Shown here one piece after another: positions 41,613 to 61,430 of a stretch of DNA of 64,000 bases. The stretch comes from Bacillales bacterium UBA5348 (lineage in GTDB: Bacteria; Bacillota_I; Bacilli_A; RF39; UBA660), in NCBI GenBank assembly GCA_002411005.1, contig DHQC01000013.1:133093-197092 (forward strand), read 5' to 3'. Under the pieces are notes generated by a model that was not told the DNA's origin, did not search any database, and saw only the letters and a list, made by a program, of their open reading frames with translations. The translations under genes and the position numbers were made by a program. Positions within the stretch are counted from its first letter, which is position 1. Each line of letters begins with the position of its first letter.

Positions 41613-41687
41613 TGCCTCGTAGCCAAGCGGTAAGGCATTGGACTCTGAATCCAACATGCGTTAGTTCGAACCTAACCGAGGCAGCCA
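41613..41687 (+). tRNA. tRNA-Gln (anticodon CTG)
   Basis: 75 nt cloverleaf with a U1:A72 pair, anticodon loop CTCTGAA, T-loop GTTCGAACC, and an encoded CCA. Closely resembles B. subtilis tRNA-Gln apart from C34. Confidence 0.85.
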
Positions 41688-41745
41688 TTAAGTTTTTAAT
41701 TCATCTTATAATTGGATGACTTTATTATATAGAAGGGGTGAAAAT

Positions 41746-43389
41746 ATGAATTTTGAATTATTAGCAGAATTGTTATTTCCTAATATAACAAATACTCCTG
41801 ATTATTATGAAGATAAATATCCTAAACGTAATCTTAATAAGAAGGATATAGTAGTTAGATTTGCACCAAGCCCAACAGGGTTTATTCATATGGGATCTCT
41901 TTATGTTGCATCATTAAATAGATTATTAGTTAATCAAAATCATGGGATCTATTATTTAAGAATAGAGGATACTGATCATAAAAGAGAAGTAAAAGGGGGC
42001 ATCAAATTAATTCAAGAAGCTTTAGATTATTTTTCTATTAGCTTTGACGAATCACCTTCTAAAGGTGGTGAATATGGCCCTTATATTCAATCGGAAAGAA
42101 AAGTAATATATCAAACATATATAAAAGACTTAATAAAGAAAGGTTTAGCATATCCTTGCTTTTGTACGGAGGCAGAATTAGAAAGCATTAGAGAATCACA
42201 AGTATCATCAAAGTCTAAACTTGGATATTATGGGAAATGGGCAATGGATAGAAATTTGACGTTTGACGAGATACAGCAAAGAGTTAATAATGGAAAATCA
42301 TATGTAATTAGATTAAAAACACCTAAAATAATCAATGAAAAGATAGAATGTAATGACATGATAAAGGGAAATATATATTTCCCTACAAATGATATAGATG
42401 TTGTACTATTAAAATCTGATGGCCTTCCGACATATCACTTTGCACATGTTATTGATGATTATTTAATGCGTACAACTCATGTTATTAGAGGAGATGAGTG
42501 GTTATCTTCCTTGCCAATCCATTTGCAGTTATTTTCTATGCTTGGTTTTGAATTGCCAAAATACGTGCATATTTCACCTTTAACCAAGAAAGAGGGCAAT
42601 AGTATTCGTAAATTAAGCAAGAGAAAGGACCCAGAGTCTGCTATTAGTTATTATCAAGAAAAAGGAATCCCAATAGAGGCTTTAAAGATTTATTTTGCAA
42701 ATATTACTAATTCTAATTTTGAACAATGGTATAGTCAAAATCAGAGAGCCCCTCTTACCGACTTTACTTTTACTTTTAATAAAATGCCAGTAGGTGGTAC
42801 GCTTTTTGATATAAATAAACTTAAAAATATTTGCAGACAATATTTTAGTTTGGAGAGTGCCTTAGACATTTATCTTGAATCATTAGATTATTTTAAAACT
42901 TATGATAATAGTTTTTATGAAATCTTATTAAAAAATAAAGAATATGTTATAAGTATTTTAAATATAGAAAAAGATAGACCTCGACCAAGAAAAGATATAG
43001 CTTGCTATAAAGATATAAAAGATGAGAATTGGTATATGTTTGATGAATTGTTTTATTCTAATGTTTCATATTTAAACTTGAAGGATGAGACAACATATGA
43101 CTATAATATTCTTGTTTCATATTTGTCTAACTATTTTGATATTAATGACAATGAAGTAGAGTGGTATGATCGTACAAAGTCTTTAGCTGTTCATTTTGGT
43201 TATGCCCCTGATGTGAAGAGTTATAAAGAAAATCCTAATAATTATAAAGGACATATAGGGGATATATGTGAATTAATTAGGGTTGCTATAACGGGTGAAA
43301 AACAAACCCCTAGTTTATATGAAATACAACAAATTCTAGGATTTGATAGAATAAAGGCCCGAATTGATAATTTTAAAAACTTTTTTTAA
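41746..43389 (+). CDS. gltX: Glutamate--tRNA ligase (GluRS-type class I aaRS)
   Basis: Motifs RFAPSPTGFIHMGS (HIGH region), AYPCFCTEAELE (GluRS zinc-binding knuckle), and KLSKRK (KMSKS). AAGGGGTGA RBS before ATG 41746. About 547 aa. Confidence 0.85.
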   Translation: MNFELLAELLFPNITNTPDYYEDKYPKRNLNKKDIVVRFAPSPTGFIHMGSLYVASLNRLLVNQNHGIYYLRIEDTDHKREVKGGIKLIQEALDYFSISFDESPSKGGEYGPYIQSERKVIYQTYIKDLIKKGLAYPCFCTEAELESIRESQVSSKSKLGYYGKWAMDRNLTFDEIQQRVNNGKSYVIRLKTPKIINEKIECNDMIKGNIYFPTNDIDVVLLKSDGLPTYHFAHVIDDYLMRTTHVIRGDEWLSSLPIHLQLFSMLGFELPKYVHISPLTKKEGNSIRKLSKRKDPESAISYYQEKGIPIEALKIYFANITNSNFEQWYSQNQRAPLTDFTFTFNKMPVGGTLFDINKLKNICRQYFSLESALDIYLESLDYFKTYDNSFYEILLKNKEYVISILNIEKDRPRPRKDIACYKDIKDENWYMFDELFYSNVSYLNLKDETTYDYNILVSYLSNYFDINDNEVEWYDRTKSLAVHFGYAPDVKSYKENPNNYKGHIGDICELIRVAITGEKQTPSLYEIQQILGFDRIKARIDNFKNFF

Positions 43390-43456
43390 AGAAATAGTTG
43401 TTATTTTTCGAGAAAATTATTATAATCTAATTGGTCTATTAATTTAGACCATATGT

Positions 43457-43532
43457 GACCCGTTGGTGAAATGGTTAACACGCTACCCTCTCAAGGTAGT
43501 ATTTATGGGTTCGAACCCCATACGGGTTACCA
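43457..43532 (+). tRNA. tRNA-Glu (anticodon CTC)
   Basis: 76 nt. Acceptor GACCCGT/ACGGGTT, anticodon stem CTACC/GGTAG with loop CTCTCAA, T-loop TTCGAAC, and an encoded CCA. Confidence 0.85.
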
Positions 43533-43542
43533 ATGAATATTA

Positions 43543-43566
43543 AAAGCACTTTTAGTGCTTTTTTAA
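43543..43566 (+). terminator. Terminator after tRNA-Glu
   Basis: Hairpin AGCACTtttAGTGCT followed by TTTTTT. Confidence 0.55.
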
Positions 43567-43567
43567 T

Positions 43568-43596
43568 TTGACTTTGCAAAGTTCTTACTATATAAT
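43568..43596 (+). promoter_or_regulatory. Sigma-A-type promoter for the 43638 gene
   Basis: TTGACT, a 17-nt spacer, then TATAAT. Confidence 0.55.
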
Positions 43597-43637
43597 AGCA
43601 ACCCAATTAAAACGTTTTAAAAAGGCGAGGTGATCAT

Positions 43638-45107
43638 ATGAGCTTTTATCCCTTAGAAAGATTAAAAAGTGGAAAGATTGATTTTTTATTTAATCTAACA
43701 CCATCTGATAGAAAAAGAATTATTGAAGATCTGAGAAAATCAGAAGAAAGAGAAATTATTGTGGCAGAATTTTTAAGTAAGGCAATAAAACGTTTGCCCT
43801 ACTTTTGCCTTGAAGTAATATATGATATGGATAAATATTATAATGAAACCTTTGACTTATTAAAAAAATATAAAATAGCTTTTGATGATGAAAAAATTGG
43901 TAATGTAATTAACAACACCTCTTTTGGCGAAAAATATGTATATGATAACTTGGATGAAATACTATTGAAAAACGAAGAATCAAGAATAGATATGCTAATT
44001 GATTTTGCGTATAATAAATCTGAAAATAAAGATAAATGGCTTTGTAGATTGTCAAAAAACAATAATTTGCATCAACGAGCTTTATTTATGATAAGTATAT
44101 TAAAAAAGCATCCTCAGGATTTAGCAGAAATTTATGATAATATAATTGAATATTTAACTTCCGAAAATGGTTTTGGTGATATACAATTATCTTGGTTTCC
44201 GGAAAAGATTTCGTCTAAGGATTTAAGTTTAATAACATACTTAGTATCAAAAACCAAATTAGATCGAAGTTTATATTTAGAATTAAAAGAGTATTTGTTA
44301 ACTAATTATAAAGAAAATGATTTGGCTGAAATGTTTTTAAAGAATTATCTAATTTCAAACAGAAACTTTCAAATAGATTCCAGGGAATCAGGAATGATTG
44401 AATTTAAACAAGATTCAAACAGATTATTTAAAACTTCCAGAAATTATCAACTCCGAATTTTAGAACAATATAGTGAAAACATAAGCAAAGACTTGTTAGA
44501 AAAATTCAAATATTATTTACAGTTTTTTCAAAATGAAAACGTTCCAAGATATTTATTGTCAGAAATGTTTAGTAAAGGATTAGGTTCGGATATAAGAAGA
44601 TGTATAGATATTTATTACCCTAAGAGTAAGGAACAAAGTTGTGAATTTGTTGGAAGGGGTAGTACTAGTAGTTGTTTTAGAATAGGGGATTATGTTTTAA
44701 AATTGAGTACTATAAAATGGTCTTACGAGGATGTTATTTGTCCAAATTTATATTTGATAATTAAAAATGAAGAGGAAAAATTCGTTCGCGATGATAAGGG
44801 TATTGTAAGAGCAGCCCTAGAAGTTCAAAAACACTTAAAAAGAACTGCTAAAGATCTACCTTCTGAACATTTTGTCTACTTTAATAAAGAACTTAATAGA
44901 TTGGGTTATATGTATACCGATACATTAATAAATGGAATGTGTGGAGATAATTGTATGCTTTTAGACAGTTATAAGGATGCTGATTGTTTTAATCCTGAAA
45001 GTTTACCAGAAATGTTTAAAAGGGTACCATTAGTATTAATTGATAGAGATAGAGTCTATCCTAAAAACAAAATTTATATTAAGCAATTAAGCGAAGGCCA
45101 TTCTTAA
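43638..45107 (+). CDS. Hypothetical protein: N-terminal alpha-helical domain plus C-terminal atypical protein-kinase-like domain
   Basis: The C-terminal 160 aa carry a Gly-rich loop VGRGSTSSCF, beta3 Lys context YVLKL, then ...GMCGDNCML... and ...VLIDRDR..., consistent with RIO/Kdo-type minimal kinases. Strong promoter and RBS. Confidence 0.45.
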   Translation: MSFYPLERLKSGKIDFLFNLTPSDRKRIIEDLRKSEEREIIVAEFLSKAIKRLPYFCLEVIYDMDKYYNETFDLLKKYKIAFDDEKIGNVINNTSFGEKYVYDNLDEILLKNEESRIDMLIDFAYNKSENKDKWLCRLSKNNNLHQRALFMISILKKHPQDLAEIYDNIIEYLTSENGFGDIQLSWFPEKISSKDLSLITYLVSKTKLDRSLYLELKEYLLTNYKENDLAEMFLKNYLISNRNFQIDSRESGMIEFKQDSNRLFKTSRNYQLRILEQYSENISKDLLEKFKYYLQFFQNENVPRYLLSEMFSKGLGSDIRRCIDIYYPKSKEQSCEFVGRGSTSSCFRIGDYVLKLSTIKWSYEDVICPNLYLIIKNEEEKFVRDDKGIVRAALEVQKHLKRTAKDLPSEHFVYFNKELNRLGYMYTDTLINGMCGDNCMLLDSYKDADCFNPESLPEMFKRVPLVLIDRDRVYPKNKIYIKQLSEGHS

Positions 45108-45149
45108 AACAATAAACTCTAACTAATTGTAGTTAGAGTTTATTGTTTC
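45108..45149. terminator. Bidirectional terminator (18-bp perfect stem)
   Basis: Hairpin AACAATAAACTCTAACTAattgTAGTTAGAGTTTATTGTT. Confidence 0.65.
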
Positions 45150-45610
45150 TTTAAGTCTAATAAATGTTGAATTTGCCAATTTCTTTCATCTTCCATTAAT
45201 TGAGTAACATTATCTTTATCTTTATCTTTATCTTTATTTAAATGATATATAGCTGAAACTACATACATGGCTGATCCTTCTGAATGGGTAGGGACATGGC
45301 AAGTCACTAAAGCATGGCTACAGGCCCTACAAATTTGACATGCTGCTTTATCGATTGGTTCTAATTCTCTAGCAGCGGCTAGAGCAGGATATGTGAACTT
45401 TCTAGCATCCCACATTTTCATCTCACCGTTAATCCATTTTTTTAACATATTTATTGCAGTACGAGGTCTAACCTCATTGGAATATTTATCCTCAAGTAAT
45501 GGCATATATTTTTCAACGCAATCAATTGCCCAAATAGCTAAAATCTTTTGGTCTGTTGTTTTTATTATTTCGACTAATCTAGGATCGTGCCTTAATTTTC
45601 TCATATCCAT
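45140..45610 (-). CDS. Hypothetical Cys/His-cluster protein (third gene of the DNPH1-like operon)
   Basis: 156 aa. Putative metal-binding cluster CQICRACSHALVTCHVPTH. Contains a KDKDKDKD hexanucleotide repeat. 4-nt gap to the upstream gene. Confidence 0.45.
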   Translation of the reverse strand: MDMRKLRHDPRLVEIIKTTDQKILAIWAIDCVEKYMPLLEDKYSNEVRPRTAINMLKKWINGEMKMWDARKFTYPALAAARELEPIDKAACQICRACSHALVTCHVPTHSEGSAMYVVSAIYHLNKDKDKDKDNVTQLMEDERNWQIQHLLDLKKQ

Positions 45611-45614
45611 TTTA

Positions 45615-46226
45615 TTACCTATTATTATATTGATTAATAAAATTTATTAAGCTTTGGCAAATTTTCTCAATATTATCAAAATTGTTATAATCTCTATATT
45701 TTCTATTTATTTCTATTTGTATTATATCTATATCTGTGTTGGCATAAATAAATTGTGTAATTCCGCCACCTTTAAAAGGATCATTAAATTTAATGTTTTT
45801 GATACCAGTTTCGATAAAGGCTTCTCCTAATTCTTTTGTAGTAGAATAAGCTGCAGATAAATTGTTTAAAGTTCCTATTTCAACATCAAAATCACGATTG
45901 CGATCAGCTCCGTGGATATCAATTAATAACTTAATATTATTTTCAACAATATAATCACGTAACTTATTTTTAAATTCGTCTGTTTTTAAAGAGTTGGAGT
46001 CAATCTTATTATCTTTTAATTTTATATAATATGAGCAATTTACTTGTTCTGCAACGTATTTAGCAATAGCTTTTGTAAAAGGCTCTGACTTTTTAATTAT
46101 ATTCCATTTATCCTGTTGCATAGTATGAACAGCAGTAAGTATTATTGGTATGGTCCCATTTCTCATTATATATTCTTCATTAGAATCAGATAATTCGTGA
46201 TTCATTATTTCTTGTTTAAAATTCAT
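45615..46226 (-). CDS. N-formylglutamate amidohydrolase (FGase, PF05013)-like hydrolase
   Basis: Blocks IPIILTAVHTMQ, LLIDIHGA, and IQIEINRKY match the FGase-family patterns (xxPHxG, xDxHS, xElRxdly). Confidence 0.5.
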   Translation of the reverse strand: MNFKQEIMNHELSDSNEEYIMRNGTIPIILTAVHTMQQDKWNIIKKSEPFTKAIAKYVAEQVNCSYYIKLKDNKIDSNSLKTDEFKNKLRDYIVENNIKLLIDIHGADRNRDFDVEIGTLNNLSAAYSTTKELGEAFIETGIKNIKFNDPFKGGGITQFIYANTDIDIIQIEINRKYRDYNNFDNIEKICQSLINFINQYNNR

Positions 46227-46239
46227 CTTATCACCTATA

Positions 46240-46659
46240 TTAACTTAAATCGTTAGTAAATTTATTAATTATTTTCTGTGCCTCTTCTATATTGTTATAT
46301 GGATAAACACTTAAATATTTATTTCCATTTCTCATTGCAGAAATTTTATTGCCATTATTTTTGTATAGACATAATATTGGTTTGTTTAATTTTTCGGCGT
46401 AACATATTTCATAACCAACACCTAATGATGGATTTGTTACCTCTGCAACAACAAAATCAGATTCATCAATCCAACTACAATCTCTTTGGAAAATGTATTC
46501 GTCAGTTTTATTATTTTCTCCTGAAGAATTTAAATTTTTATCCCCAATATGTTCTGTTAATACGACAAAATTATTTTTTAGATATTTAATTATTTCAAAA
46601 TATTCATCAACAAAATCCCTGCCACCTCTTATTGAACCTGAAAAATATACTTTTCTCAC
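46240..46659 (-). CDS. DNPH1/Rcl-like 2'-deoxynucleoside 5'-phosphate N-hydrolase (nucleoside 2-deoxyribosyltransferase superfamily)
   Basis: VYFSGSIRGGRD...VVLTEH...FVVAEVTNPSLGVGYEICYA parallels DNPH1 IYFCGSIRGGRED...VLTEH...VVVAEVTQPSLGVGYELGRA. GTG start with GAGGTGATAA RBS. A terminator and TATAAT -10 lie just upstream. Confidence 0.65.
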   Translation of the reverse strand: MRKVYFSGSIRGGRDFVDEYFEIIKYLKNNFVVLTEHIGDKNLNSSGENNKTDEYIFQRDCSWIDESDFVVAEVTNPSLGVGYEICYAEKLNKPILCLYKNNGNKISAMRNGNKYLSVYPYNNIEEAQKIINKFTNDLS

Positions 46660-46746
46660 CTTATCACCTCATTACAATATTATAGCATAAAAAAGTACCG
46701 TTACCGGTACTTTACTCACACTGCTTTGTTTTGTATGTCAACATAA

Positions 46747-47574
46747 TTACCGTGTCTCTTTTTTTATTAATTTAGCATGTAAAACAACTTTATCATCCTC
46801 ATTATAACAAGTAGATAAAGTTAATATATTATCACTAGCATTAACAGAGGTATTGAAATTATAAGAACTTCGATTTAATAATGTACTGAGAAAGGTTTGA
46901 TATTCATTTTCACTTCTAAATTCAGTTTGAATATAATCGCTAGTAGTAGGAATGTGATAAACACTAAATACTTGCCACAATGTATTTTCATATTCGGTTG
47001 ATAATTTTACAACATAATTATTATCATTTTTAAGCCATCCACTTTTTAATATATTCTTTAATGAACCAAACATTGTTGTGTCAATTCTTCCATGTGCGTA
47101 TATAATTGTATTCTTATCTGTTCCATCTAACTTATTTCTATAATCTGAAAATACCCATCCTGCTTCATTATAACTTTTATCAAATGTATGATTTAAATAG
47201 TATTTATTATCTTTAGTTTGAACAAAGGGATAATTTATATTAGTCCCATTAACTTGTATCCATCCCATTGTATGATTATTAGTTTCTTTTAAATCAGTAA
47301 AATTAACATTTATCATATTCATTTTTATGTAATCCCAATAAGGATTAAATTTAGGAATTACTTCCACTTGTTCTATTATCTCGGTATTTTCGGTGTCACT
47401 AATTTCTTTAATAACAATTTCCTCGTGTATTTTCTCAATTTGAATTTCAGTTTCATGTGAATCAAACTTCCACTTTAGAATATTGAATAATGAAATAATA
47501 AAAAAGATAAAGCATACGATAAAAACAATTAAAATAATACTGTTTTTTAATTTATATTTTGTTTTTTTCTTCAA
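46747..47574 (-). CDS. srtB: Class B sortase
   Basis: N-terminal TM anchor, YPFVQTKDNKYYLNH, and catalytic TLSTC. Confidence 0.8.
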   Translation of the reverse strand: MKKKTKYKLKNSIILIVFIVCFIFFIISLFNILKWKFDSHETEIQIEKIHEEIVIKEISDTENTEIIEQVEVIPKFNPYWDYIKMNMINVNFTDLKETNNHTMGWIQVNGTNINYPFVQTKDNKYYLNHTFDKSYNEAGWVFSDYRNKLDGTDKNTIIYAHGRIDTTMFGSLKNILKSGWLKNDNNYVVKLSTEYENTLWQVFSVYHIPTTSDYIQTEFRSENEYQTFLSTLLNRSSYNFNTSVNASDNILTLSTCYNEDDKVVLHAKLIKKETR

Positions 47575-47711
47575 ATCATATCACGTCCATTATCATTATA
47601 CTATTTTTTTGTGAAAAATTAAAAAATATTAACTAAATGATAAAAATGTGCTATACTTGATTAAAGTAAGATAGTAAAAATAAGTTACTTACTTTGAAAG
47701 AGAGGAGAAAA

Positions 47712-49172
47712 ATGAAAGGGATTAAAATGTTTGCATGTGCACTTGTTGGATTTATGGGTTTTGGAATAATGAGTGTTAATGCATTAGAGGTAAGTGAAAC
47801 ATTTGAAAAAGTATTTCCAAATGGAGAACTTGAAACTTATTCAGTTCCATTTAAAAATATAAATGATCAATGGGTTTTTCTTGATTGGTCTTTCGCAAAT
47901 AATCCTGGTAGTAAAGAATTACCTGCCGGATATGGAGCTTCAATCAGTGATTGTGATGAAAATTGGGTTTGTACAGGGACAATTGGAGAAAGCTGCTCGA
48001 GTCCTGAAGAATGTGCAATAGCATTTAACGAATCTCATAGTGTTAAATTAGTTTTTAATGAATACGACAGGGAAATTGACAAAACAGTAAGTCAGTTAGT
48101 TAAAAAAATAGCAGACGGATCAACTTTTGAAAATATTAAATATTATAATTTAACTGATTTAAATTTAGTGAATTATTATGCTTCAATAAATGATACTGAA
48201 GACGCAATGGATTTAGATAAATCTATCAATTATACTACTGAATTGAAAAAGGATTTCAATAATAGTAATCTTACTTATACTTTTAGTGCAAGAATGGGAG
48301 ATAATTATCCACTTTATTCTTCATTAGGTGGGATATTTGTTGTATATCATAATGGTATTGCATATGGATATGTAGATCCAATTGGAATTCAAAATGCAAA
48401 TGTTATATATGTTCCAACTGATACTGTAACTACTACTGATGCATATATTGCTGCCGCAAAAGAAAGAATAAAAGGATATTTGGGTTATGATGTAGAAATT
48501 ATAGCAGGTGGTAAAAGAGTCACTTTAAAGGTATATCCTGATGATCCTGAATCTGAAAGTTACGATTTTACAAAACTTGGCGATGAAACCTTGATGGGAG
48601 ATTATTACTACAATGTAAAACTTAATGGTAATATATATCAATTTGTTATTATTAGAGATTCTAGTAAAATGCAATCTCCAGAGTATAAATCAGTAGATTT
48701 AAAATCAAATATTGCTGTATCTTCTAATAATGGAACAATTCCGCTTGATGCAAATATCAATACAACAATAATTACTAAAACAGATGATTACAAAATAAAA
48801 GTAAATTCAGATAATGTTTATGTTGTTGATATACAATTGAAGTCAGCATTGAAAACAGATTATATTGCTAAACTAGATAATGGTAAATATTTAGTTAGTA
48901 TTCCAGTACCGGAAAATCTAAACGGTAAAGAAATAATTGCTTATTATATTACAAGTACAGGTGAAAAAGAAGAGCATGTTGTAACAGTAAAAGATGGTTT
49001 TGCATCTTTTGAAACTGATCACTTTAGTACATATATATTAGCAGAAAAAGCAACTTTAACTGAAACTAATCCTCAAACATTTGACGGGGTCATAAATTAT
49101 TTTATTATTGGTATAGTAAGTTTAATTGGACTTCTAGGAACAGGATTATATTTAAGAAAAAGAAATAATTAA
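47712..49172 (+). CDS. Cell-wall-anchored surface protein with NPQT sorting signal (SrtB substrate candidate)
   Basis: Signal peptide. C-terminus ...TNPQTFDGV, a hydrophobic stretch, then LRKRNN. AGAGGAG RBS before ATG 47712. Confidence 0.7.
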   Translation: MKGIKMFACALVGFMGFGIMSVNALEVSETFEKVFPNGELETYSVPFKNINDQWVFLDWSFANNPGSKELPAGYGASISDCDENWVCTGTIGESCSSPEECAIAFNESHSVKLVFNEYDREIDKTVSQLVKKIADGSTFENIKYYNLTDLNLVNYYASINDTEDAMDLDKSINYTTELKKDFNNSNLTYTFSARMGDNYPLYSSLGGIFVVYHNGIAYGYVDPIGIQNANVIYVPTDTVTTTDAYIAAAKERIKGYLGYDVEIIAGGKRVTLKVYPDDPESESYDFTKLGDETLMGDYYYNVKLNGNIYQFVIIRDSSKMQSPEYKSVDLKSNIAVSSNNGTIPLDANINTTIITKTDDYKIKVNSDNVYVVDIQLKSALKTDYIAKLDNGKYLVSIPVPENLNGKEIIAYYITSTGEKEEHVVTVKDGFASFETDHFSTYILAEKATLTETNPQTFDGVINYFIIGIVSLIGLLGTGLYLRKRNN

Positions 49173-49525
49173 AAAAGTTATATTATGAGAATTCACAATT
49201 TGTGAGTTCTTTTTTGTTGACACCTTATTTACTATAGAATAAGTGAATATGCATTTGCTCAGATTGATATAATTGAAAAGTATGCAGTCGAAATTGTTTT
49301 AGGATTCAATGTTGTAAGACCTTATCTTGTTGGAGCTTCAGATGTTGGTGCTTTTGCTTTTGTAACTCTTGGGGACTTCTCCTTACATTGTAACCTCAAT
49401 AAAACCCCCGCTTTAACTTTAGCTGATGCCTATGCCTTATATGAAAATAATCTTGATAGAATTCGCCTATCGTAAAGATTGATACTTAATCTACTTTATT
49501 ATTTGTCTACTATATGGGGTACTTA

Positions 49526-49848
49526 TTCAAAAGGAACTAGGTTTTAAAATAAACACCATTCAAACTGATAACGGTAGTGAGTTTGTAAATAATTAAGAAG
49601 AAACAAAAGAATTAAAGAGATTATGTATTAAACATAAAAGAAAAAGACCATATTCACCTTGGCAAAATGGAAAGGTTGAAAGAAGTCATAGAATGGATAC
49701 AGAAAGATTTTATAATAAGCATGAATTTGCATCTGAAGAAGATTTAATGAAGAAAGTAAAGAGATATGAATCTAGATATAATAACATTTCAAGAAAAGTA
49801 TTAGGATTCAAATCCCTTAATGAAATAGTAGAACAATATTTAATTTAA
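49526..49848 (+). mobile_element. Transposase remnant (rve/DDE integrase C-terminal part, IS481/IS3-like) with an internal stop; no intact IS
   Basis: The frame reads ...LGFKINTIQTDNGSEFVNN*EETKELKRLCIKHKRKRPYSPWQNGKVERSHRMDTERFYNKHEF...RKVLGFKSLNEI, i.e. the TDNGSEF ... PYSPxxNGKVER block of retroviral-type integrase cores. No N-terminal half and no inverted repeats were found. Confidence 0.6.
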
Positions 49849-50037
49849 TATATCAGAGCTATTTATTTTTATAAAAAGTGTGACATATGATTGATTTCTC
49901 TAGAAAAAAATTATAAAAAAGAAATTTTTATGAAGAATTATGTCAAACTTTATGTTAAAATAAGTATGAGGATAGATAAAATTAAGTAGTACATTTAAGC
50001 AGTAAGTAGTAAAAATCTTATCGAAAGGGGAAATACT

Positions 50038-50436
50038 ATGAAAAAGTTTAAATTTTTTGCGATGATTTTAGGCCTATCATTCGGTTTAACCGCAATGGGT
50101 GTAAATGCCTGGACTTATAAACCCTTTGGGATCTTATTTGAAAACTGGGGAACCCAAACTATTAATACCGCATATGCAGACAAAGAAACAGATATAGCAC
50201 AAAAATGGGAAACTCTTGAAGTTTCAAATGGTGGAAACCCTGAAGTTGTGTTACAAGGCAAAACGCTTGGCTCTGTAAGTGATAATGGTTGGAGAGTTTA
50301 TTTATGGAATGGACAAGCATACGAATGGTCTACATACCTTTCAAAACTCGATTCAGAAGATTATAGATTGCAATTTAAAAAGAATGGTTGGACAATTGGA
50401 ATGACTAATGTCACCGGTTTTTGGTGGAAATATTAA
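50038..50436 (+). CDS. Secreted Trp-rich small protein (bacteriocin-like candidate)
   Basis: Sec signal MKKFKFFAMILGLSFGLTAMGVNA; the 108-aa mature part has 11 Trp and ends ...GFWWKY. Immediately upstream of a LanFEG-like ABC transporter. Confidence 0.45.
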   Translation: MKKFKFFAMILGLSFGLTAMGVNAWTYKPFGILFENWGTQTINTAYADKETDIAQKWETLEVSNGGNPEVVLQGKTLGSVSDNGWRVYLWNGQAYEWSTYLSKLDSEDYRLQFKKNGWTIGMTNVTGFWWKY

Positions 50437-50521
50437 TCCAAGTAACAACTAATAGAATATAAGTAGTATGAATAATAATATAAAAATTTTATCTACTCTC
50501 TATTTTTTATTAGGAGGTAAT

Positions 50522-51304
50522 ATGAAAAATAGCAAAAAAAATATTTGTCTTTTTGTAATTTCGGTAGTGGCTTCAATCATAATGGTATTTTTATCCATTA
50601 ATTCACAATATCCCGATGGTTTAGGTATGGACAGAGCACCATTTGATTATGCTTGGTTTGATGTGTATGTTTATACAAGCTCGACATTTTTAGTTGTAGC
50701 AACATTGATTCTAATATTATCATGTAAAAAAATTCATGATTTATATCATTCTGGAATGATAAAAAATATGATTCAACGAGAAACAATTAGTAATATTAAG
50801 AAAAACCTTTTGGCAAATACGTGGTTAAGTGGTCTTTTCCTTTATCCTGTATTTCTGATACTTACATATATTATTTGTTTTATTGTTTTTCCTACTAGAG
50901 GTGCAGGAATAAACATCGGTCCAGATGGACCAATGTATAATTCACTTTTAATTCTTCTTAAATCTTGTGTAATAACAATAATATATTCAATCATTGTTTT
51001 CAACGTCACATTAATAGTGTCTAAAAAAATGAAGAGTTTTGCAGTTACAACAATTTTATCTTTTATAATAATTTTGATTTATTCAGCGATTTCTCAACTA
51101 ATTTTTGTTAACATTTTTAAAACATTTTTATCGGAACAATTCGCCAAAGGATTTGATTTAATTAATGGTTTAATATTTGGGTTTGGAAGCACTATATCAA
51201 TTTTAATACATGGATTCATTTTAGTAATTATAACCACCTTAATTTTAAATAAGATTTATAAGGATACTAATGAAGTTGTTTTGAATTATGAAAATCAAAA
51301 CTAA
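50522..51304 (+). CDS. ABC-2-type permease-like membrane protein (1 of 3)
   Basis: About 6 TM helices. AGGAGGT RBS before ATG 50522. Confidence 0.5.
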   Translation: MKNSKKNICLFVISVVASIIMVFLSINSQYPDGLGMDRAPFDYAWFDVYVYTSSTFLVVATLILILSCKKIHDLYHSGMIKNMIQRETISNIKKNLLANTWLSGLFLYPVFLILTYIICFIVFPTRGAGINIGPDGPMYNSLLILLKSCVITIIYSIIVFNVTLIVSKKMKSFAVTTILSFIIILIYSAISQLIFVNIFKTFLSEQFAKGFDLINGLIFGFGSTISILIHGFILVIITTLILNKIYKDTNEVVLNYENQN

Positions 51305-51998
51305 TGAAAAAATGCTATATGATGAAATAACGAGTAATAAAATACTAACAATAACAGCAATATTTATTACTGCCGTTATATTCACAATAGCTTATACAAA
51401 TGGATTAAAAGGTTCTAATTACTTTGAATTTATAAATGAAATATTTGTTAGTGTACCTTATTGTAGTTTGATTACAATAATTTCTGGGTTACTTATAAAC
51501 TTAATCATATTTAGAAGTTTTCTAGGGAATAATTTGTTAGAACAAAGGTTTAAATCAAAAAAAGATTTATTTAATTATATATTAAAATTCTATTTAAAAA
51601 TATTGTTTATAGTTCTAGGATTTATAATCTTTGCTGTTATGATATTTTCTAATTTATTTTCCCATTTCAATTTGGTTTTTATTACTGATGGAAATATAAA
51701 CGAAAATATTATATTCATATTTATAAATTTATATTTGACTTTGATAAATATTACAATATGGTTTTTAATAAGTTATGTTATATTGAAATTAATTAATGAT
51801 AAATTAGGCATTATAATTGTTGTTTTTATAGCACTATATCAATATGTAAGTCCGACAATATTTAATATTAATATAATGTTTCCATATGTGAATACTTATA
51901 ATAATTTATGGATATTGTTGCTGACTCCAATCTTTATATTTATATTATATAAATTATCAATGATTATATATACTAAACAGAATTGGAAGATTAGATAA
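51288..51998 (+). CDS. ABC-2-type permease-like membrane protein (2 of 3)
   Basis: 236 aa, about 6 TM helices. Overlaps the neighbouring gene. Confidence 0.5.
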   Translation: MKIKTNEKMLYDEITSNKILTITAIFITAVIFTIAYTNGLKGSNYFEFINEIFVSVPYCSLITIISGLLINLIIFRSFLGNNLLEQRFKSKKDLFNYILKFYLKILFIVLGFIIFAVMIFSNLFSHFNLVFITDGNINENIIFIFINLYLTLINITIWFLISYVILKLINDKLGIIIVVFIALYQYVSPTIFNINIMFPYVNTYNNLWILLLTPIFIFILYKLSMIIYTKQNWKIR

Positions 51999-52760
51999 AT
52001 GAAATCAATGATATATAGAGATTTGTTATTGTTTGTTAAGAAAAATTATAAGATTTTAATTTTTATAATTCTATTGTTAGTATTGAAAACAATATTTAAT
52101 TATAATGATTTTATCAATGCAACAAATTCTGTTGATAATTCAGATAATTTATCGCAAAACAATGTAATCGATTTAACTCCATTTGTTTATACAGAAAACC
52201 TGTTTTTTGAAAGATCTTTGGGACTAACGTATGATATAGATGGGATTATTGAAATCATATATATGTGTTTAATTATATCGTTATACATATATGTAGCAGT
52301 TTCAGTTTATTTTTCAGATATAGCTTCAGCACCAGAACAATTGTTTTTGAGAATGAACAAAAAAAAATACGTAATGCAAAAACTTATATCTATTACAGCA
52401 ATAAGTATTTTAATAGATGTAATACTATATTTATCTCTCTTTATAACACTTTCTGCATTAAATGTAAGCTATTTTAATTTTGAATTGCTGTTTGTTAATA
52501 TATTTTATAAAATAATTCTGCAGTTTATAGTAATTGCTTTGTTTGGTTATATAAGCATATACTCATATTTTGTTGTTCTAGGATTACTATTGTCAATTTT
52601 GACATTTAAAATTAAGTATCTATATTTTTTGTTTCCAAGTGGAGTAAAGTTTGATATCTATATAGTCATAGTTTTTATAATAATTTCTATGTTTACATAT
52701 TGGATATGCCACAAGAAAATAATAAGTCTTTTCAGAAAGGAGAAAATGTATGGAATATAA
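51999..52760 (+). CDS. ABC-2-type permease-like membrane protein (3 of 3)
   Basis: 253 aa, about 6 TM helices. Abuts the previous gene. Confidence 0.5.
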   Translation: MKSMIYRDLLLFVKKNYKILIFIILLLVLKTIFNYNDFINATNSVDNSDNLSQNNVIDLTPFVYTENLFFERSLGLTYDIDGIIEIIYMCLIISLYIYVAVSVYFSDIASAPEQLFLRMNKKKYVMQKLISITAISILIDVILYLSLFITLSALNVSYFNFELLFVNIFYKIILQFIVIALFGYISIYSYFVVLGLLLSILTFKIKYLYFLFPSGVKFDIYIVIVFIIISMFTYWICHKKIISLFRKEKMYGI

Positions 52761-53388
52761 AATTGAAGTAAAAGATTTGAACTTAACTATAAATTCACAT
52801 GAAATCCTAAAAAATATTAATTTAAACATTGAATCTGGAAAAATATATGGTTTTATCGGACGAAATGGTAGTGGGAAAAGCATGCTTCTTAAATGTATAT
52901 GTGGATTACTTAAACCGAATACAGGGAGTGTTATTGTTAACAATGAAGACATTTATAAAAAAGACGTGTTTCCAAGTAGTATGAGAGCTTTTATTGACAA
53001 ACCAACATTTATAGGATCTTTAACAGGATATGAGAATTTAGAATTATTAGCTGATATACAAAATATTATAGATGATGAAAAAATTAAAGATACTCTTATA
53101 AAGTGTGATTTAGAAGATCAAATAAATAAAAAATATGGCAAATATTCACTTGGAATGAAACAAAAACTAGCGATTGCTAGTGTCTTGATGGAAAATCCAG
53201 ATATTATGATATTTGACGAACCATTTAATGGAATTGATAATAAAAGTGTTGAAATGATTAGAAAGATAATTCTAGAAGAAAAACAACAGGGAAAAACAAT
53301 TTTGATTGCAACACATATAAAAGAAGATATAGACTTATTATGTGACGTTATATATGAATTGGATTTAGGTCAAATAATCGGCAAGTAA
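52750..53388 (+). CDS. ABC transporter ATP-binding protein (LanF-like)
   Basis: Walker A GRNGSGKS, signature LGMKQKL, and Walker B MIFDEP. Confidence 0.8.
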   Translation: MEYKIEVKDLNLTINSHEILKNINLNIESGKIYGFIGRNGSGKSMLLKCICGLLKPNTGSVIVNNEDIYKKDVFPSSMRAFIDKPTFIGSLTGYENLELLADIQNIIDDEKIKDTLIKCDLEDQINKKYGKYSLGMKQKLAIASVLMENPDIMIFDEPFNGIDNKSVEMIRKIILEEKQQGKTILIATHIKEDIDLLCDVIYELDLGQIIGK

Positions 53389-53589
53389 CAATAATATAGA
53401 TATTTAATTTTAAATATGATCGTGTTTATTTGCAAAATATTTAACTTATTAGAAAATTAGTAATTACTTAAGAAAAATCATTGTCTTAATTCTTTCAGAC
53501 TGTTGGTAAAAACCAATGGTCTTTTTTTAAAAAAAACGTAAAAAATATAAAAAAATTTAACAAAATATTGCTAAATTTTTAATTTTTCT

Positions 53590-53663
53590 TGGCAGGGGCA
53601 GTAGGAGTTGAACCCACATTAACGGTTTTGGAGACCGTCATTCTACCATTGAAATATGCCCCT
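53590..53663 (-). tRNA. tRNA-Trp (anticodon CCA)
   Basis: The reverse complement gives AGGGGCATATTTCAATGGTAGAATGACGGTCTCCAAAACCGTTAATGTGGGTTCAACTCCTACTGCCCCTGCCA. Near-identical architecture to B. subtilis tRNA-Trp. Confidence 0.85.
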
Positions 53664-53747
53664 AAGTAATTTAAATAATATCATATCTAACGAATCTTTT
53701 CAATAACATTTAAAACATTTACACATATATTGTAATAGGTGATATCT

Positions 53748-54173
53748 ATGTTAGTTGCACATACAACAAAGGAATTGGATCTACTAGCTAGGCTTATGAG
53801 AGCTGAAGCAGTTGGTGAAGGTAACTTAGGAATGCTGATGGTTGGCAATGTTGGAATAAATCGTATTATTGCTGAGTGTCTTGATTTTAAAAATATAAGA
53901 ACTATCCAAGAGATGATTTATCAAACCCCAGGCGGTTTTAGCGGAAAGGATAGCCCGATGTTTTTTGGTACCTCGACAACTAAGGAAAAAGAACTAGCAA
54001 CGCGTGTTATTAGAGGCGAGGATTATTATCCGGCAACAAATGCTCTTTGGTTCTATGCCCCGGCAGGAGGAGAAGAGTGTAGAGGCTTTTGGTTCAATCA
54101 ACGTAATGCTGGAAGATATAAATCTCACTGCTTTTATGAACCAGCTCAGGGAGTATGTCCTCAGTTGTATTAA
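53748..54173 (+). CDS. cwlJ: Spore cortex-lytic enzyme CwlJ (SleB-type cell wall hydrolase domain)
   Basis: Collinear with B. subtilis CwlJ (142 aa): DLLARLMRAEAVGEG..GMLMVGNVGINRI...FKNIRTIQEMIYQ...KSHCFY. AGGTGA RBS before ATG 53748. Confidence 0.85.
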   Translation: MLVAHTTKELDLLARLMRAEAVGEGNLGMLMVGNVGINRIIAECLDFKNIRTIQEMIYQTPGGFSGKDSPMFFGTSTTKEKELATRVIRGEDYYPATNALWFYAPAGGEECRGFWFNQRNAGRYKSHCFYEPAQGVCPQLY

Positions 54174-54180
54174 AAACGCA

Positions 54181-54217
54181 AGTATTAAGATAATTAATGC
54201 TTGTTTTTTTATGTTTT
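54181..54217 (+). terminator. Terminator after cwlJ
   Basis: Hairpin GCAAGTATTAAgataaTTAATGCTTG (one mismatch) followed by T7. Confidence 0.5.
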
Positions 54218-54381
54218 TAAGTATGAAGCTTAGTTCTTTATCCATTATATTAATAGATTAGTAATTATAATTGACATTTATTAGTTATACTTTATGTCAA
54301 AAATATAAAATAGTTGTTCTTTTATGACAAAAGTCATTTTTTTTGGTAAAATAAGATTTGTAAGAATAGGAAGGTGACTTC

Positions 54382-56034
54382 GTGTTTACAATTAAAGTCG
54401 AATATAAAAGTAATGTATATTCTTATCCTAAAGGAATTACCTTGTTAGAAATAAGTAGTCAATTTAAGGATGAATATAAATACGATATTATTATTGGAAC
54501 AGTTAATAATAAATTGACTGAACTTAATGCTAAAGTGGATAGAGATTGTATAATTGATTTTTTTGATATCTCATATCTTTTGGGCAATAGAGTTTATGAA
54601 AGAGGACTTGTCTATTTATATACTAAAGCTGTTCAAGATGTGTTACAAAGTGAAGTTCTTGTTGAGCATTCTATTGATAGAGGTCTTTATACTACTTTAA
54701 CAGGTGTTTTAGAAATAACAGATGATGTAGTTAATAAAATTGATAATCGTATGAGGGAACTTGTAAATCTCAAAATTCCCTTTGAAAAGTTAAGTGTATC
54801 AAGACTTGAAGCGATTGATTATTTTGAAGCTAATAAGCGAATTGATATAGCAGAAAGTCTTAGATATATTAGTAATACTTATATTAATTTGTATAGATTG
54901 GATAATTCTTATGACTTTCTTTACGGGGAAATGCCTATTGATACCTCATATTTAAAATACTTTGAATTAACTAGGGTAGAAAACAAAGGAATAGTTTTAA
55001 GGTTTCCTAATTTATATTTAAGTTGTGATATGGCCCCTTATATACATCACAATAAGTTATTTCGTGAATTTGAAAAATATAATGATTGGTGTTCTAAGCT
55101 TAATTTAACAAACGTATCGGATTTGAATGAAGCTATATCAGCTGGACATATTACTGATTTGATATATATGTGTGAAGTAGAACAAAATGGACGTTTAATT
55201 GAAATAGCTAAAACAATCAATGATAACCCAAACTTTAAAATCATCTTAATTGCAGGGCCTTCATCATCTGGTAAAACGACTACTTCTAAAAAACTATGTT
55301 TATTTTTAAGAAGTATGGGGATAATTCCTCATTCATTATCTATTGATGATTACTTTTTAGATCGTGAGTCAACACCTTTAAAAAAAGATGGAAAACCAGA
55401 TTTTGAATCAATTGCAGCTGTAAACATTGATTTGTTTAATGAACATTTAAGAAAATTATTAAATAATGAAGAAGTTCAATTACCTAAATATAATTTTATA
55501 ACTGGTAAAAACGAATTAACTAAAAATAAATTAAAATTAGGAGAGAAGGATATTTTAGTCATAGAGGGGTTACATGCTTTAAATGATGAATTAATAAAAA
55601 CAATTGATAATAATCAAAAATACAAAATATATATTTCACCTTTGACTAATATTAGTTTAGATAATCATAATCGTATAAGTACTAGTGATAATCGCTTGTT
55701 AAGAAGAATGATAAGGGATAATAAATATAGAGGTTATACAGCAGATGTAACTCTATCTAAATGGCAAGATGTTAGAGAAGGTGAAGAGAAACATGTTTTC
55801 CCATATCAAGATGCTGCTGACATAGTTTTTAATACATCGTTGGTTTATGAGCTTGGTATCTTAAGATTATATGCAGAACCATTATTATTTTCCGTAGGTG
55901 AAGATAATAAATATTACGGTGAATCATTAAGGTTATTAAATATTCTTAGAAATATTTTACCAATTACAAGTAAAAGTGTTCCATTAGATTCAATAATTAG
56001 AGAATTTATTGGAAATAGTTATTTTAGAAATTAG
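54382..56034 (+). CDS. Uridine kinase/phosphoribulokinase-family P-loop kinase with N-terminal TGS-like domain
   Basis: 550 aa. Walker A IAGPSSSGKTTT in the C-terminal half. GTG start with AGGAAGGTGA RBS. Confidence 0.6.
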   Translation: MFTIKVEYKSNVYSYPKGITLLEISSQFKDEYKYDIIIGTVNNKLTELNAKVDRDCIIDFFDISYLLGNRVYERGLVYLYTKAVQDVLQSEVLVEHSIDRGLYTTLTGVLEITDDVVNKIDNRMRELVNLKIPFEKLSVSRLEAIDYFEANKRIDIAESLRYISNTYINLYRLDNSYDFLYGEMPIDTSYLKYFELTRVENKGIVLRFPNLYLSCDMAPYIHHNKLFREFEKYNDWCSKLNLTNVSDLNEAISAGHITDLIYMCEVEQNGRLIEIAKTINDNPNFKIILIAGPSSSGKTTTSKKLCLFLRSMGIIPHSLSIDDYFLDRESTPLKKDGKPDFESIAAVNIDLFNEHLRKLLNNEEVQLPKYNFITGKNELTKNKLKLGEKDILVIEGLHALNDELIKTIDNNQKYKIYISPLTNISLDNHNRISTSDNRLLRRMIRDNKYRGYTADVTLSKWQDVREGEEKHVFPYQDAADIVFNTSLVYELGILRLYAEPLLFSVGEDNKYYGESLRLLNILRNILPITSKSVPLDSIIREFIGNSYFRN

Positions 56035-56051
56035 AAGAGGAGAGTGAAATT

Positions 56052-57065: not shown

Positions 57066-57211
57066 CATGGTATAGAATAAAATAGTAATAGTCTAACAGC
57101 TACTACTATTTTTATATGGATTGATTCTATTGATGCAGCTGTTAAATCGCTATGGAAAATAATTTTTATACATGATATACTAGAAATGAATTAATAATCT
57201 TAGGAGGATTT

Positions 57212-58384: not shown

Positions 58385-58404
58385 TATGATAGGATGTGCT
58401 TATT

Positions 58405-61351: not shown

Positions 61352-61430
61352 TGTCTATTGAGTGTACACCTAGTAAAAAGACTGTATAATTATTGTTATC
61401 TTTTTGGTATACTAAACTTGAGGTGATGGT

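Follow-up and report, generated by a model that had tools for sequence, protein, structure and literature searches.

A probable region of genome plasticity between two tRNA genes in an uncultured lineage of Bacilli

The interval under study spans about 10 kb, is bounded by the genes for tRNA-Glu and tRNA-Trp, and lies in a 64,000-nucleotide stretch of DNA, here called the window. The host is an uncultured, spore-forming lineage of 'Bacilli' from anaerobic digesters (biogas reactor). The features of the interval and of its two anchors are as follows.

41613-41687, plus strand: tRNA-Gln(ctg), left anchor
41746-43389, plus strand: glutamyl-tRNA synthetase (GluRS), left anchor
43457-43532, plus strand: tRNA-Glu(ctc) (Rfam), left anchor
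43542-43562: bidirectional terminator-like hairpin 3' of tRNA-Glu
43587-45166: variable block 1, which contains the 489-aa gene
43638-45107, plus strand: 489-aa protein, modelled with a helical N-terminal and a minimal protein-kinase-like C-terminal domain
45107-45125 / 45130-45148: perfect inverted repeat (19-bp arms, 4-nt loop) where the 489-aa and Imm5 genes converge
45140-45610, minus strand: Imm5_like putative immunity protein (Pfam PF21805, E=1.5e-31)
45615-46226, minus strand: FGase / poly-gamma-glutamate-hydrolase-like protein (weak match)
46240-46659, minus strand: DNPH1-type 2'-deoxynucleoside 5'-phosphate N-hydrolase homologue (Pfam PF05014, Nuc_deoxyrib_tr)
46692-46713: terminator-like hairpin
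46731-46749: 19-bp sequence TTGTATGTCAACATAATTA, single copy in the window
46747-47574, minus strand: class B sortase, srtB (TIGR03064, 170 bits vs cutoff 154)
47694/47712-49172, plus strand: surface protein with signal peptide and C-terminal sorting signal, candidate sortase-B substrate
49187-49211: terminator-like hairpin
49242-53588: variable block 3, with its right edge at the CCA end of tRNA-Trp (53590)
49242-49915, plus strand: junk spacer, left part of variable block 3
49549-49845: C-terminal remnant of a DDE transposase (rve/rve_3) with an in-frame stop inside
49916-53565, plus strand: ABC operon of 3.6 kb, promoter to terminator
50038-50436, plus strand: Trp-rich secreted protein of 132 aa with signal peptide
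50468-51304, 51288-51998 and 51999-52760, plus strand: three multi-pass membrane proteins
52750-53388, plus strand: ABC ATPase
53497-53522: operon terminator, a terminator-like hairpin
53590-53663, minus strand: tRNA-Trp(cca) (Rfam)
53748-57065, plus strand: right anchor, with a SleB-like cell-wall hydrolase, a 550-aa nucleoside-kinase-like protein and GAPDH

Every feature that the first-pass annotation had described is present where it was placed, and the terminator said to have a perfect 18-bp stem does have a perfect stem, of 19 bp. Nine terminator-like hairpins, the four listed above among them, were observed against 2.7 expected. The tRNA-Gln/GluRS/tRNA-Glu cassette is also carried by the distant relatives L001 and L003, and the linkage of tRNA-Trp to the SleB-like gene is retained in L051, a sister species, and in L052.

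The 489-aa protein has no match in profile searches of Pfam and NCBIfam, and no Pfam model covers its family of 164 representatives. Its AF2 model (pLDDT 93) has an all-helical N-terminal domain; when the C-terminal domain of the model is compared with the PDB, the best 28 matches, weak as they are (E at least 0.008), are all protein kinases, and protein kinases make up all but one of the 50 PDB matches listed. Because of these fold matches and the residues invariant across the family (G341, G350, K355, N438 and D469), the earlier description of a kinase-like protein is reasonable.

Two haplotypes of the interval exist within one species. The window haplotype is represented by L022 (Logan) and L023 (JGI), with an identical GluRS on six contigs, and the second haplotype by L024-L028, from NCBI, ENA, JGI and Logan assemblies. 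The flanks of the two are 99.55-99.84% identical (99.55% for the left anchor, 41613-43532, and 99.8% for the right anchor, where dS is about 0), and dS of the flank genes is 0-0.013. Inside the interval the identity is 92.7-97.0%, three indel blocks are present in addition, and synonymous divergence is 10-60 times higher than in the flanks. Differences per 250 bp number 0-4 in the flanks vs 0 to 53 inside, and they are distributed in a mosaic pattern. These polymorphisms, their junctions and the jump in divergence are observed directly. Homology between the haplotypes stops on the left side at 43586, and the Imm5 reading frame of the L024-type continues beyond the deletion junction toward the tRNA-Glu region. 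The 489-aa gene is missing in L024-L028 and also in L051, at different junctions, and is an indel whose junctions vary among lineages.

Contigs and MAGs from metagenomes make up all of the comparison sequences, several assemblies are interrupted at tRNA-Trp or close to it (L026 stops at 53849), and L021 and L022 are separate contigs of one sample, so that mis-assembly or mixed strains around a single true arrangement might be suspected. There is very little chance that such an artefact accounts for the data, because each haplotype was obtained base for base from independent assemblies of different pipelines, the window type at 100% identity in L022 (Logan) and L023 (JGI) and the second type in assemblies from ENA, Logan and JGI and in two MAGs from NCBI, with identical junctions throughout. 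Contig breaks at this site are the expected product of strain-variable regions.

The genes of the interval differ in how they diverge. The Imm5_like gene is found in both haplotypes, which differ here at as many as 53 sites in 250 bp, and its copy in L051 has 82% aa identity. The DNPH1 homologue, which matches solved DNPH1/Rcl structures at E=2.5e-26, is present in the L024-type as well, shows a rather high dN/dS between haplotypes (0.72, on only 8 differences), and is 77% identical at the aa level to its copy in L051. The FGase-like gene occurs in both haplotypes (dS 0.095 between them) and is missing from L051. For srtB the haplotypes are separated by a dS of 0.21 with dN/dS 0.05, and no homologue is found on the L051 contig. 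The surface protein, which gene callers start at the ATG at 47712 to give 486 aa, ends in a TNPQTF motif followed by a hydrophobic membrane span and an RKRNN tail, and its divergence between haplotypes is again mosaic, with anything from 0 to 21 differences in 250 bp.

In L051, whose flanks have about 84-87% DNA identity to the window, the same two tRNAs lie 4.6 kb apart, and the only interval genes in common with the window are those for the Imm5-like and DNPH1-like proteins. This pair occupies the same position in both species and is therefore old at the locus; the two genes belong to the persistent core of the interval. L051 also shares with the L024-type two 'extra' genes. In the L024-type, TTGTATGTCAACATAATTA occurs twice, as a direct repeat around a 1.1-kb block that consists of these two genes, and their homologues sit at the same place in L051. 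Because L051 has both homologues there, the window haplotype has most likely lost the block by a deletion between the 19-bp repeats. The sample is small: apart from two haplotypes and a single 10-kb contig of the sister species it includes only very distant relatives, and every sequence is a metagenome assembly. The polarity of the indels depends on one outgroup. In L051 the 3' end of the intact tRNA-Trp gene is duplicated around a 1.5-kb insert, as part of a repeat of 51 nt whose 35-nt core is perfect. This directly visible duplication reads as an att-like integration scar; the L051 genes that were called and scanned include no integrase.

The right part of the interval has a history of its own. 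The ABC operon has the same boundaries (49916 to about 53530-53565) in three further genomic contexts, where its identity to the window copy is 83-94.5%. DNA identity is 93.6-94.5% to the copies in L030-L038 and L043-L047, each in a different context, and 83% to that in L049, again in a different context. In L043/L044 the operon stands directly behind genes for a 581-aa Resolvase+Recombinase protein (large serine recombinase) and a 458-aa Mob_Pre relaxase, which is the gene set of an integrative mobilizable element, and in L030-L038 it stands behind Mob_Pre fragments. Scaffold L029 is 94.7% identical to the window in the operon part and 72.8% in the RNase J gene, a contrast that presumes the scaffold, which has an N gap beside the operon, to be non-chimeric. 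The foreign copies and their contexts are direct observations, and it is only for the 3.6-kb ABC operon, and for no other block, that horizontal transfer is directly evidenced. The window copy of the operon stops 24 bp short of the 3' end of tRNA-Trp and adjoins the dead transposase fragment; no intact copy of this transposase is present in the window or in any comparison locus, and the spacer 49242-49915 is missing from the L024-type. The position of the operon and the L051 scar suggest site-specific integration at tRNA-Trp in the window; a tRNA-Trp-like sequence was not found on the operon-bearing element of L043.

The Trp-rich protein at the head of the operon contains 9 Trp within about 108 mature residues. 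It has no family match, either in Pfam or to the lactococcin 972 family, and its structure model reaches a pLDDT of 39. Lactococcin 972 is encoded in a Sec-dependent bacteriocin operon with a dedicated membrane protein and an ABC ATPase. The operon resembles this type in its order, from a small signal-peptide protein through membrane proteins to an ABC ATPase, and in being mobile and patchy, although it has three separate membrane proteins instead of one large one and no sequence match. The Trp-rich protein is possibly a Sec-secreted, toxin-like product that goes together with an ABC export or immunity pump.

The first-pass annotation had proposed a horizontally acquired or hypervariable tRNA island. 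Hypervariability between two tRNAs is what we find, whereas one acquired 10-kb island is not, the blocks having different histories. A single genomic island, taken up whole and horizontally when it integrated site-specifically at a tRNA gene, would fit the two bounding tRNA genes, a content of only accessory-looking genes with a transposase remnant, and a right part that stops exactly at the tRNA-Trp 3' end. We consider it very improbable nonetheless. Profile searches of the window interval found no integrase/recombinase and no relaxase, and direct repeats of the tRNA-Glu or tRNA-Trp 3' end, which would mark integration boundaries, are absent from the window. In GC, tetranucleotides and codon usage the interval resembles its host, including all of 43.5-50 kb, the exception being the ABC permease genes, two of which are the only codon-usage outliers (z=2.2 and 3.0). 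The differences among relatives come block by block, each with its own junctions, and none of the relatives compared lacks the whole interval; the Imm5-DNPH1 pair is in place in L051, and near-identical foreign copies exist only for 49916-53565. Nor are content and order conserved across the family, as a core-genome segment would be, since the haplotypes and L051 differ.

It could also be argued that nothing was transferred, and that an ancestral surface/antagonism locus has diverged rapidly where it stands, under diversifying selection, and has lost genes through deletion. Several differences do read best as deletions, most genes are host-like in composition, and the dN/dS of the Nuc_deoxyrib_tr gene, on its few differences, points the same way. 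This is unlikely, however, because the values for srtB indicate old neutral divergence and not positive selection, against a background dS of about 0-0.01, because copies beside recombinase and relaxase genes elsewhere match the ABC operon at 94% identity, and because L051 carries the att-like duplication of tRNA-Trp.

The explanation that we favor, and hold to be probable, is that the interval is a region of genome plasticity bounded by tRNA genes, a gene-turnover hotspot in which inserted segments, deletions and recombined alleles form a mosaic. The sequence between the anchors would record four or more kinds of event; the direction of each, and the vehicle that delivered the operon, we infer. 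An insertion at the tRNA-Trp 3' end would have brought the operon, elsewhere the cargo of an integrative mobilizable element; the window copy now lacks mobility genes and has the dead IS fragment as its neighbor. A deletion at the 19-bp direct repeat would have removed the two-gene block from the window haplotype, and a microhomology deletion may have cost the other haplotype the 489-aa gene and the 3' end of Imm5. Between species, the FGase-like gene and the pair of sortase B and surface protein would have been gained or lost, and homologous recombination through the conserved flanks may import diverged alleles and swap whole haplotypes.

Serine-recombinase elements usually insert inside genes and not at tRNA ends, and the operon-bearing element of L043 has a recombinase of this type, which is not usually aimed at tRNA genes. 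As in classical tRNA-integrated islands, prophages and ICEs, the insertion point in the window lies exactly at a tRNA 3' end, and in L051 the tRNA is intact and an insert of 1.5 kb separates it from a perfect 35-nt copy of its 3' end; unlike islands of the tyrosine-integrase class, the window interval has neither an integrase nor att repeats, and in L051 the insert measures no more than 1.5 kb. Integrative mobilizable elements are known to integrate at tRNA 3' ends, to leave behind a direct repeat that includes the end of the gene and to decay in place, and both decayed elements and tandem accretion at such ends have been reviewed (PMC5704250). The operon in L043/L044 follows a recombinase and relaxase pair like that of the Firmicutes serine-recombinase and MobV/Mob_Pre elements (Tn4451-like; PMC5704250), whereas the window operon, without recombinase, relaxase, oriT or att sites, is orphan cargo whose mobility genes are gone.

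The cargo of the interval would consist of cell-surface and antagonism traits such as the sortase-anchored protein. Regions of genome plasticity, or horizontal-transfer hotspots, hold variable gene sets between fixed core genes, often beside tRNAs. The interval is small by comparison (5-10 kb) and known from a handful of metagenomic genomes, and its window haplotype lacks an intact mobile element and barely stands out in composition. It is like such regions in that its anchors are the same in all relatives while its content varies among strains and species, in its several independent gains and losses, elevated recombination and mobile-element remnants, and in its enrichment in surface, antagonism and immunity genes. 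A hotspot of gene gain and loss between tRNAs is ordinary bacterial genome biology, of a kind already known.

The interval between the genes for tRNA-Glu and tRNA-Trp (43533-53665) is a hotspot of gene turnover lying between conserved anchors, with tRNA-Gln, glutamyl-tRNA synthetase (GluRS) and tRNA-Glu on the left and tRNA-Trp, a SleB-like gene, a nucleoside kinase gene and GAPDH on the right. Both features that define a region of genome plasticity, or hotspot of horizontal gene transfer, are present: the same conserved flanks enclose different content in all compared genomes, and three insertion or deletion blocks with separate junctions segregate within one species, to which a sister species adds more differences. 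The tRNAs and the genes described between them in the first-pass annotation were all confirmed in the sequence. The hairpin it gave as an 18-bp stem is indeed a perfect inverted repeat (45107-45148), with an actual stem length of 19 bp. The features are given below, with tRNAs as called by ARAGORN and Rfam.

Features of the tRNA-Glu to tRNA-Trp interval and its tRNA genes (coordinates, strand, description)
41613-41687, tRNA-Gln(ctg)
43457-43532, tRNA-Glu(ctc)
43638-45107, +, 489-aa protein without a family match
45140-45610, -, Imm5_like protein
45615-46226, -, weakly FGase-like protein
46240-46659, -, DNPH1 homologue (Pfam Nuc_deoxyrib_tr; DNPH1/Rcl structures)
46747-47574, -, class B sortase (srtB; TIGR03064, above cutoff)
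47712-49172, +, surface protein, encoded divergently to srtB, with C-terminal NPQTF, membrane span and RKRNN
49549-49845, +, rve/rve_3 transposase fragment, 99 codons with an internal stop
50038-50436, +, 132-aa signal-peptide protein with 9 Trp
50468-52760, +, three membrane proteins
52750-53388, +, ABC ATPase
53590-53663, -, tRNA-Trp(cca)

Terminator-like hairpins are enriched in the interval (9 observed against 2.7 expected). The sortase scores 170.3 bits on TIGR03064, whose curated cutoff is 153.75, and the product of the adjacent, divergent gene ends in ...TNPQTFDGVINYFIIGIVSLIGLLGTGLYLRKRNN, with a sorting signal, a hydrophobic span and a basic tail; by family score and sorting signal the two are predicted to be a class B sortase and its NPQTF-type candidate substrate. 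The product of 46240-46659 aligns with 4fyh and related entries (E=2.5e-26) with the GSIRGGR and PSLGVGYE motifs both conserved, and is by sequence a DNPH1 homologue and a predicted 2'-deoxynucleoside 5'-phosphate N-hydrolase. The window is AT-rich throughout (GC ~28%, flat profile), and SASP, SleB-like and endospore-appendage families are found among the neighbouring genes. Biogas or anaerobic-digester metagenomes are the source of most related contigs. Sampling of the lineage is poor, since the closest GluRS in the GTDB species set shares only 53% identity; with GluRS as query, a metagenome scan returned nothing beyond the known contig, two distant matches and a fragment of 2 kb at 87% identity.

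Contigs fetched through identical or near-identical sortase and GluRS proteins fall into two haplotypes of one species. The window haplotype is represented by L022 (Logan) and L023 (JGI), both 100% identical to the window, and an identical GluRS occurs on six contigs. The second haplotype is carried by L024 (ENA), L025 and L026 (two NCBI MAGs), L027 (Logan) and L028 (JGI). DNA identity between the haplotypes is 99.55-99.67% in the left flank (36221/40000-43586) and 99.7-99.8% in the right flank (53589-61872), and inside the interval it is 92.7% at 45167-46749 and 97.0% at 46731-49241. Counted per 250 bp, the flanks hold 0-4 differences and the interval up to 53, unevenly distributed: the peak of 53 lies in Imm5, and the central part of the surface-protein gene is free of them. 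The dS values are 0-0.013 for the flank genes, 0.21 for srtB (dN/dS 0.05) and 0.095 for the FGase-like gene. On these values the divergence is old and neutral, under purifying selection, a pattern that marks imported alleles rather than rapid evolution in place.

Compared with the second haplotype, the window haplotype has split or shorter versions of three upstream genes: a glycosyltransferase (36841-38185; 300+132 aa vs 447 aa), DegV (39114-39857; 231+53 aa vs 289 aa) and an endospore-appendage A_ENA protein (40606-41474; 247 aa vs 333 aa). They look like genuine pseudogenes or variants, because L022 and L023, assembled by Logan and JGI, show the same state. At the other end, several independent assemblies stop at or just past the tRNA-Trp gene (L026 1-261; L021 and L022 from sample SRR1562008), and the nucleoside kinase and the sortase lie hundreds of protein accession numbers apart in three of four NCBI MAGs; such breaks and accession gaps are consistent with co-existing strains that differ there.

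The content of the two haplotypes differs in three blocks. Block 1 (43587-45166), comprising the 489-aa gene and the final nine codons of Imm5, is missing in the second haplotype, and its junction shows only an AATTTG microhomology. It is read as a deletion because the second-haplotype Imm5 frame continues across the junction toward the tRNA-Glu region. Block 2 consists of 1.1 kb that the second haplotype holds in addition between srtB and the DNPH1 gene; it encodes proteins of 214 and 139 aa, neither with a family match, and is flanked by a 19-bp direct repeat, TTGTATG(T/C)CAACATAATTA, of which the window has a single copy at 46731-46749. That these two genes might be duplicates of the DNPH1 and FGase-like genes was rejected on comparison. 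Block 3 (49242-53588), comprising the IS remnant and the five-gene ABC operon, is missing in L024-L028, where the site holds ~40-60 bp with a hairpin and T-run resembling a tRNA-Trp terminator. Homology between the haplotypes restarts at 53589/53590, which is the CCA end of tRNA-Trp. An insertion boundary at a tRNA 3' end with presence/absence polymorphism is thus a property of block 3 alone and not of the whole 10 kb.

The sister species is known from a 10.4-kb JGI contig, L051, with ~84-87% DNA identity in the flanks and 79% protein identity in the nucleoside kinase. The GluRS/tRNA-Glu and tRNA-Trp/SleB-like/kinase/GAPDH anchors are common to the window type, the L024 type and L051, and the spacing from tRNA-Glu to tRNA-Trp is 10.1, 4.9 and 4.6 kb, respectively, with differing genes. 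To this extent the first-pass annotation was right to call the interval tRNA-associated and hypervariable. L051 encodes an Imm5-like protein (82% aa identity), a DNPH1 homologue (77%) and homologues of the two block 2 genes (65-71%), together with an unrelated 276-aa gene (p276) and a 1.5-kb segment adjoining tRNA-Trp; its interval is without the FGase-like gene, srtB, the surface-protein gene, the 489-aa gene and the ABC operon. Relative to L051, further gains or losses therefore involve the FGase-like gene, srtB with the surface protein, p276 and the 1.5-kb insert at tRNA-Trp. The DNPH1 homologue and Imm5-like genes are the only interval genes kept in all three lineages (window 45140-46659; L051 986-1882). 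Since this Imm5-DNPH1 core is resident, the reading of the interval as one acquired island is wrong.

The comparison sequences are thinly sampled and metagenome-derived throughout, and the polarity of the indels is set by L051 as single outgroup. With this outgroup the block 2 genes, being present in L051, are ancestral; their absence from the window haplotype is most likely due to a loss between the 19-bp repeats. The 489-aa gene is missing in L051 at a clean junction, unlike that of the second haplotype; it either arrived by insertion once the species had separated or was lost on two occasions. In L051 the 1.5-kb segment is bracketed by a 51-nt direct repeat whose 35-nt perfect core is the tRNA-Trp 3' end, and a direct repeat containing a tRNA gene 3' end is the classical scar of site-specific integration (PMC5704250). 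From this repeat and the boundary of block 3 in the window, the tRNA-Trp 3' end is an insertion point in two sister lineages.

L052 (kinase 71% identical) keeps the link of tRNA-Trp with the SleB-like gene and not the GluRS neighbourhood. The very distant L001 and L003 keep the tRNA-Gln/GluRS/tRNA-Glu cassette, followed by unrelated genes. The tRNA-Gln(ctg)/GluRS/tRNA-Glu(ctc) cassette occupies 41613-43532 in the window, 9647-11472 in L001, 1125-3038 in L003 and 13-965 in L051, and is kept in relatives despite GluRS identities of 48-53%. Placement of a synthetase between two tRNAs that it may charge may reflect co-regulation in a lineage with an indirect Gln-tRNA route. In L003 (3183-7225), too, genes for a sortase and for a repeat-rich, LPxTG-like surface protein come after tRNA-Glu; orthology with the window pair was rejected, the two pairs being non-homologous, and their position may be due to chance or may reflect a preference of surface-protein cassettes for this place.

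The interval is not an integrative element. No integrase or recombinase gene turned up when all genes in 43533-53665 were scanned with Pfam, NCBIfam and PADLOC, and the only related feature is the 99-aa rve/rve_3 transposase fragment with its stop codon. The first-pass annotation looked to direct repeats of tRNA 3' ends as marks of the integration boundaries; these are absent from the window, where neither tRNA-Trp nor tRNA-Glu has a second copy of its 3' end at <=3 mismatches/24 nt and no convincing long direct repeat was found, and it is L051 that has such a repeat (51 nt). The tRNA-Trp 3' end also had no match as a phage attP in IMG/VR. Deviation in k-mer, GC and codon usage, likewise looked for as a mark of the island, gave a mixed picture: GC is flat, tetranucleotide composition deviates at 50-54 kb (z ~2.3, the sole outlier in the interval, equalled elsewhere in the window), and the only codon-usage outliers in the interval are the permease genes 51288-51998 and 51999-52760 (z=2.2 and 3.0), to which membrane-protein composition may contribute. 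The stretch 19000-24000, with a 719-aa ORF (20617-22776) and an RNase J-like gene (22813-24486), is as deviant as the ABC operon (tetranucleotide z ~2.1-2.3).

The ABC operon (49916-53565), which begins ~120 bp before the Trp-rich gene and ends shortly after the operon terminator, is the sole block with direct evidence of horizontal transfer. Many other biogas contigs hold segments of 93.6-94.5% DNA identity to it, and L049 one of 83%, with the same end points and different neighbours. In the scaffold L029 the operon is 94.7% identical to the window against 72.8% for the RNase J gene; the N gap beside the operon is a caveat on this contrast, and an apparent truncation of this copy was rejected, since the gap is one of assembly. 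Immediately upstream of the operon in L043 and L044 lie the genes of a large serine recombinase (581 aa) and an intact Mob_Pre relaxase (458 aa), and in L030-L038, from a 'Mollicutes bacterium' MAG, the operon is preceded by Mob_Pre fragments. In L043 and L044 a second, distantly related five-gene module comes next. This module (L043 14212-17669, also in L044-L046) encodes a secreted protein of 135 aa, three membrane proteins and an ABC ATPase; the ATPase gene has ~66% DNA identity to that of the operon, and the only feature common to the 135-aa protein and the Trp-rich protein is an aromatic motif at the C terminus.

Because of the foreign copies, the recombinase and relaxase neighbours and the compositional outliers, we regard the operon as cargo of integrative mobilizable elements (IMEs) of the serine-recombinase/MobV kind, reviewed in PMC5704250. 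Unlike such elements, the window lacks the serine recombinase, relaxase/oriT and att sites, its homology to the L043 and L044 elements being confined to 49916-53565, and a dead IS fragment with no intact copy nearby adjoins the operon. The window operon is thus orphan IME cargo and not itself an IME. In a plasmid search the 4.4-kb block met only generic ABC ATPase and integrase-core similarity (64-69%), and viral contigs yielded no member of the Trp-rich family. The Trp-rich protein has no Pfam match even at E up to 5 and only 11 homologues in 5.8 billion clusters, none annotated, and its AF2 model is unusable (pLDDT 39). The gene order resembles Sec-dependent bacteriocin/immunity operons of the lactococcin 972 type, but the likeness is one of architecture only, the protein having no match to that family.

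A scenario for the assembly of the hotspot can be proposed. Incoming DNA would either insert site-specifically at the 3' end of tRNA-Trp or recombine homologously, with the conserved tRNA genes and housekeeping genes of the flanks as anchors. The surface-protein gene is highly diverged towards its 3' end (21 inter-haplotype differences in 49000-49241), which would fit a recombination tract that brought block 3 from a diverged donor. Afterwards the mobility genes would decay, and deletions at short repeats would reduce the gene content. As cargo, the sortase-B-anchored protein and the Sec-secreted Trp-rich protein, which has an ABC pump of its own, would seem to serve surface and antagonism functions.

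The resident pair raises a more specific idea, namely that the DNPH1-type hydrolase and the Imm5-like protein form an undescribed anti-phage system that would destroy 5-hydroxymethyl-dUMP and starve Bacilli phages with hydroxymethyluracil DNA, making the interval a small defence or antagonism island. We consider this very improbable. Solved DNPH1 homologues are named 5-hydroxymethyl-dUMP N-hydrolase, and the pair is located in a turnover hotspot with alleles unusually diverged between conspecific haplotypes, but PADLOC has no real match for it: a scan of all unannotated genes gave only a weak TIR-like similarity of the DNPH1 homologue, expected from the shared fold. The literature searched links DNPH1 to defence nowhere, and on plasmids DNPH1-like genes occur in other contexts, for instance next to a thyA-like gene in Apilactobacillus kunkeei and, in Selenomonas, next to a Nudix-type hydrolase and a DUF262 gene, which nucleoside metabolism or antibiotic synthesis would fit equally.

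The 489-aa protein has no sequence match in Pfam, NCBIfam or PDB. Its model (pLDDT 93) has an all-helical part (residues 1-330) and a kinase-like C-terminal part of 160 residues. Among the Foldseek matches in PDB, the best 28 and 49 of the 50 listed are kinases, with probability up to ~1.0 for the best but E >= 0.008 and TM ~0.2, since the alignment covers only ~170 residues. K355, N438 and D469 are invariant across 59 homologues, and the family counts 164 representatives at 50% identity. The model suggests an uncharacterised family with a helical domain and a minimal kinase-like domain, which merits domain definition.

Hotspots of this kind are already well known, and the interval leaves the current understanding of genomic islands unchanged. 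It shows cleanly and on a small scale how a hotspot bounded by tRNAs is assembled, from captured mobilizable-element cargo, short-repeat deletions and allele import across conserved anchors, in barely sampled uncultured Bacilli of biogas reactors. It also points to three annotation-less families that travel with such hotspots: the Trp-rich protein with its ABC pump, the 489-aa kinase-like protein and the DNPH1/Imm5 pair.
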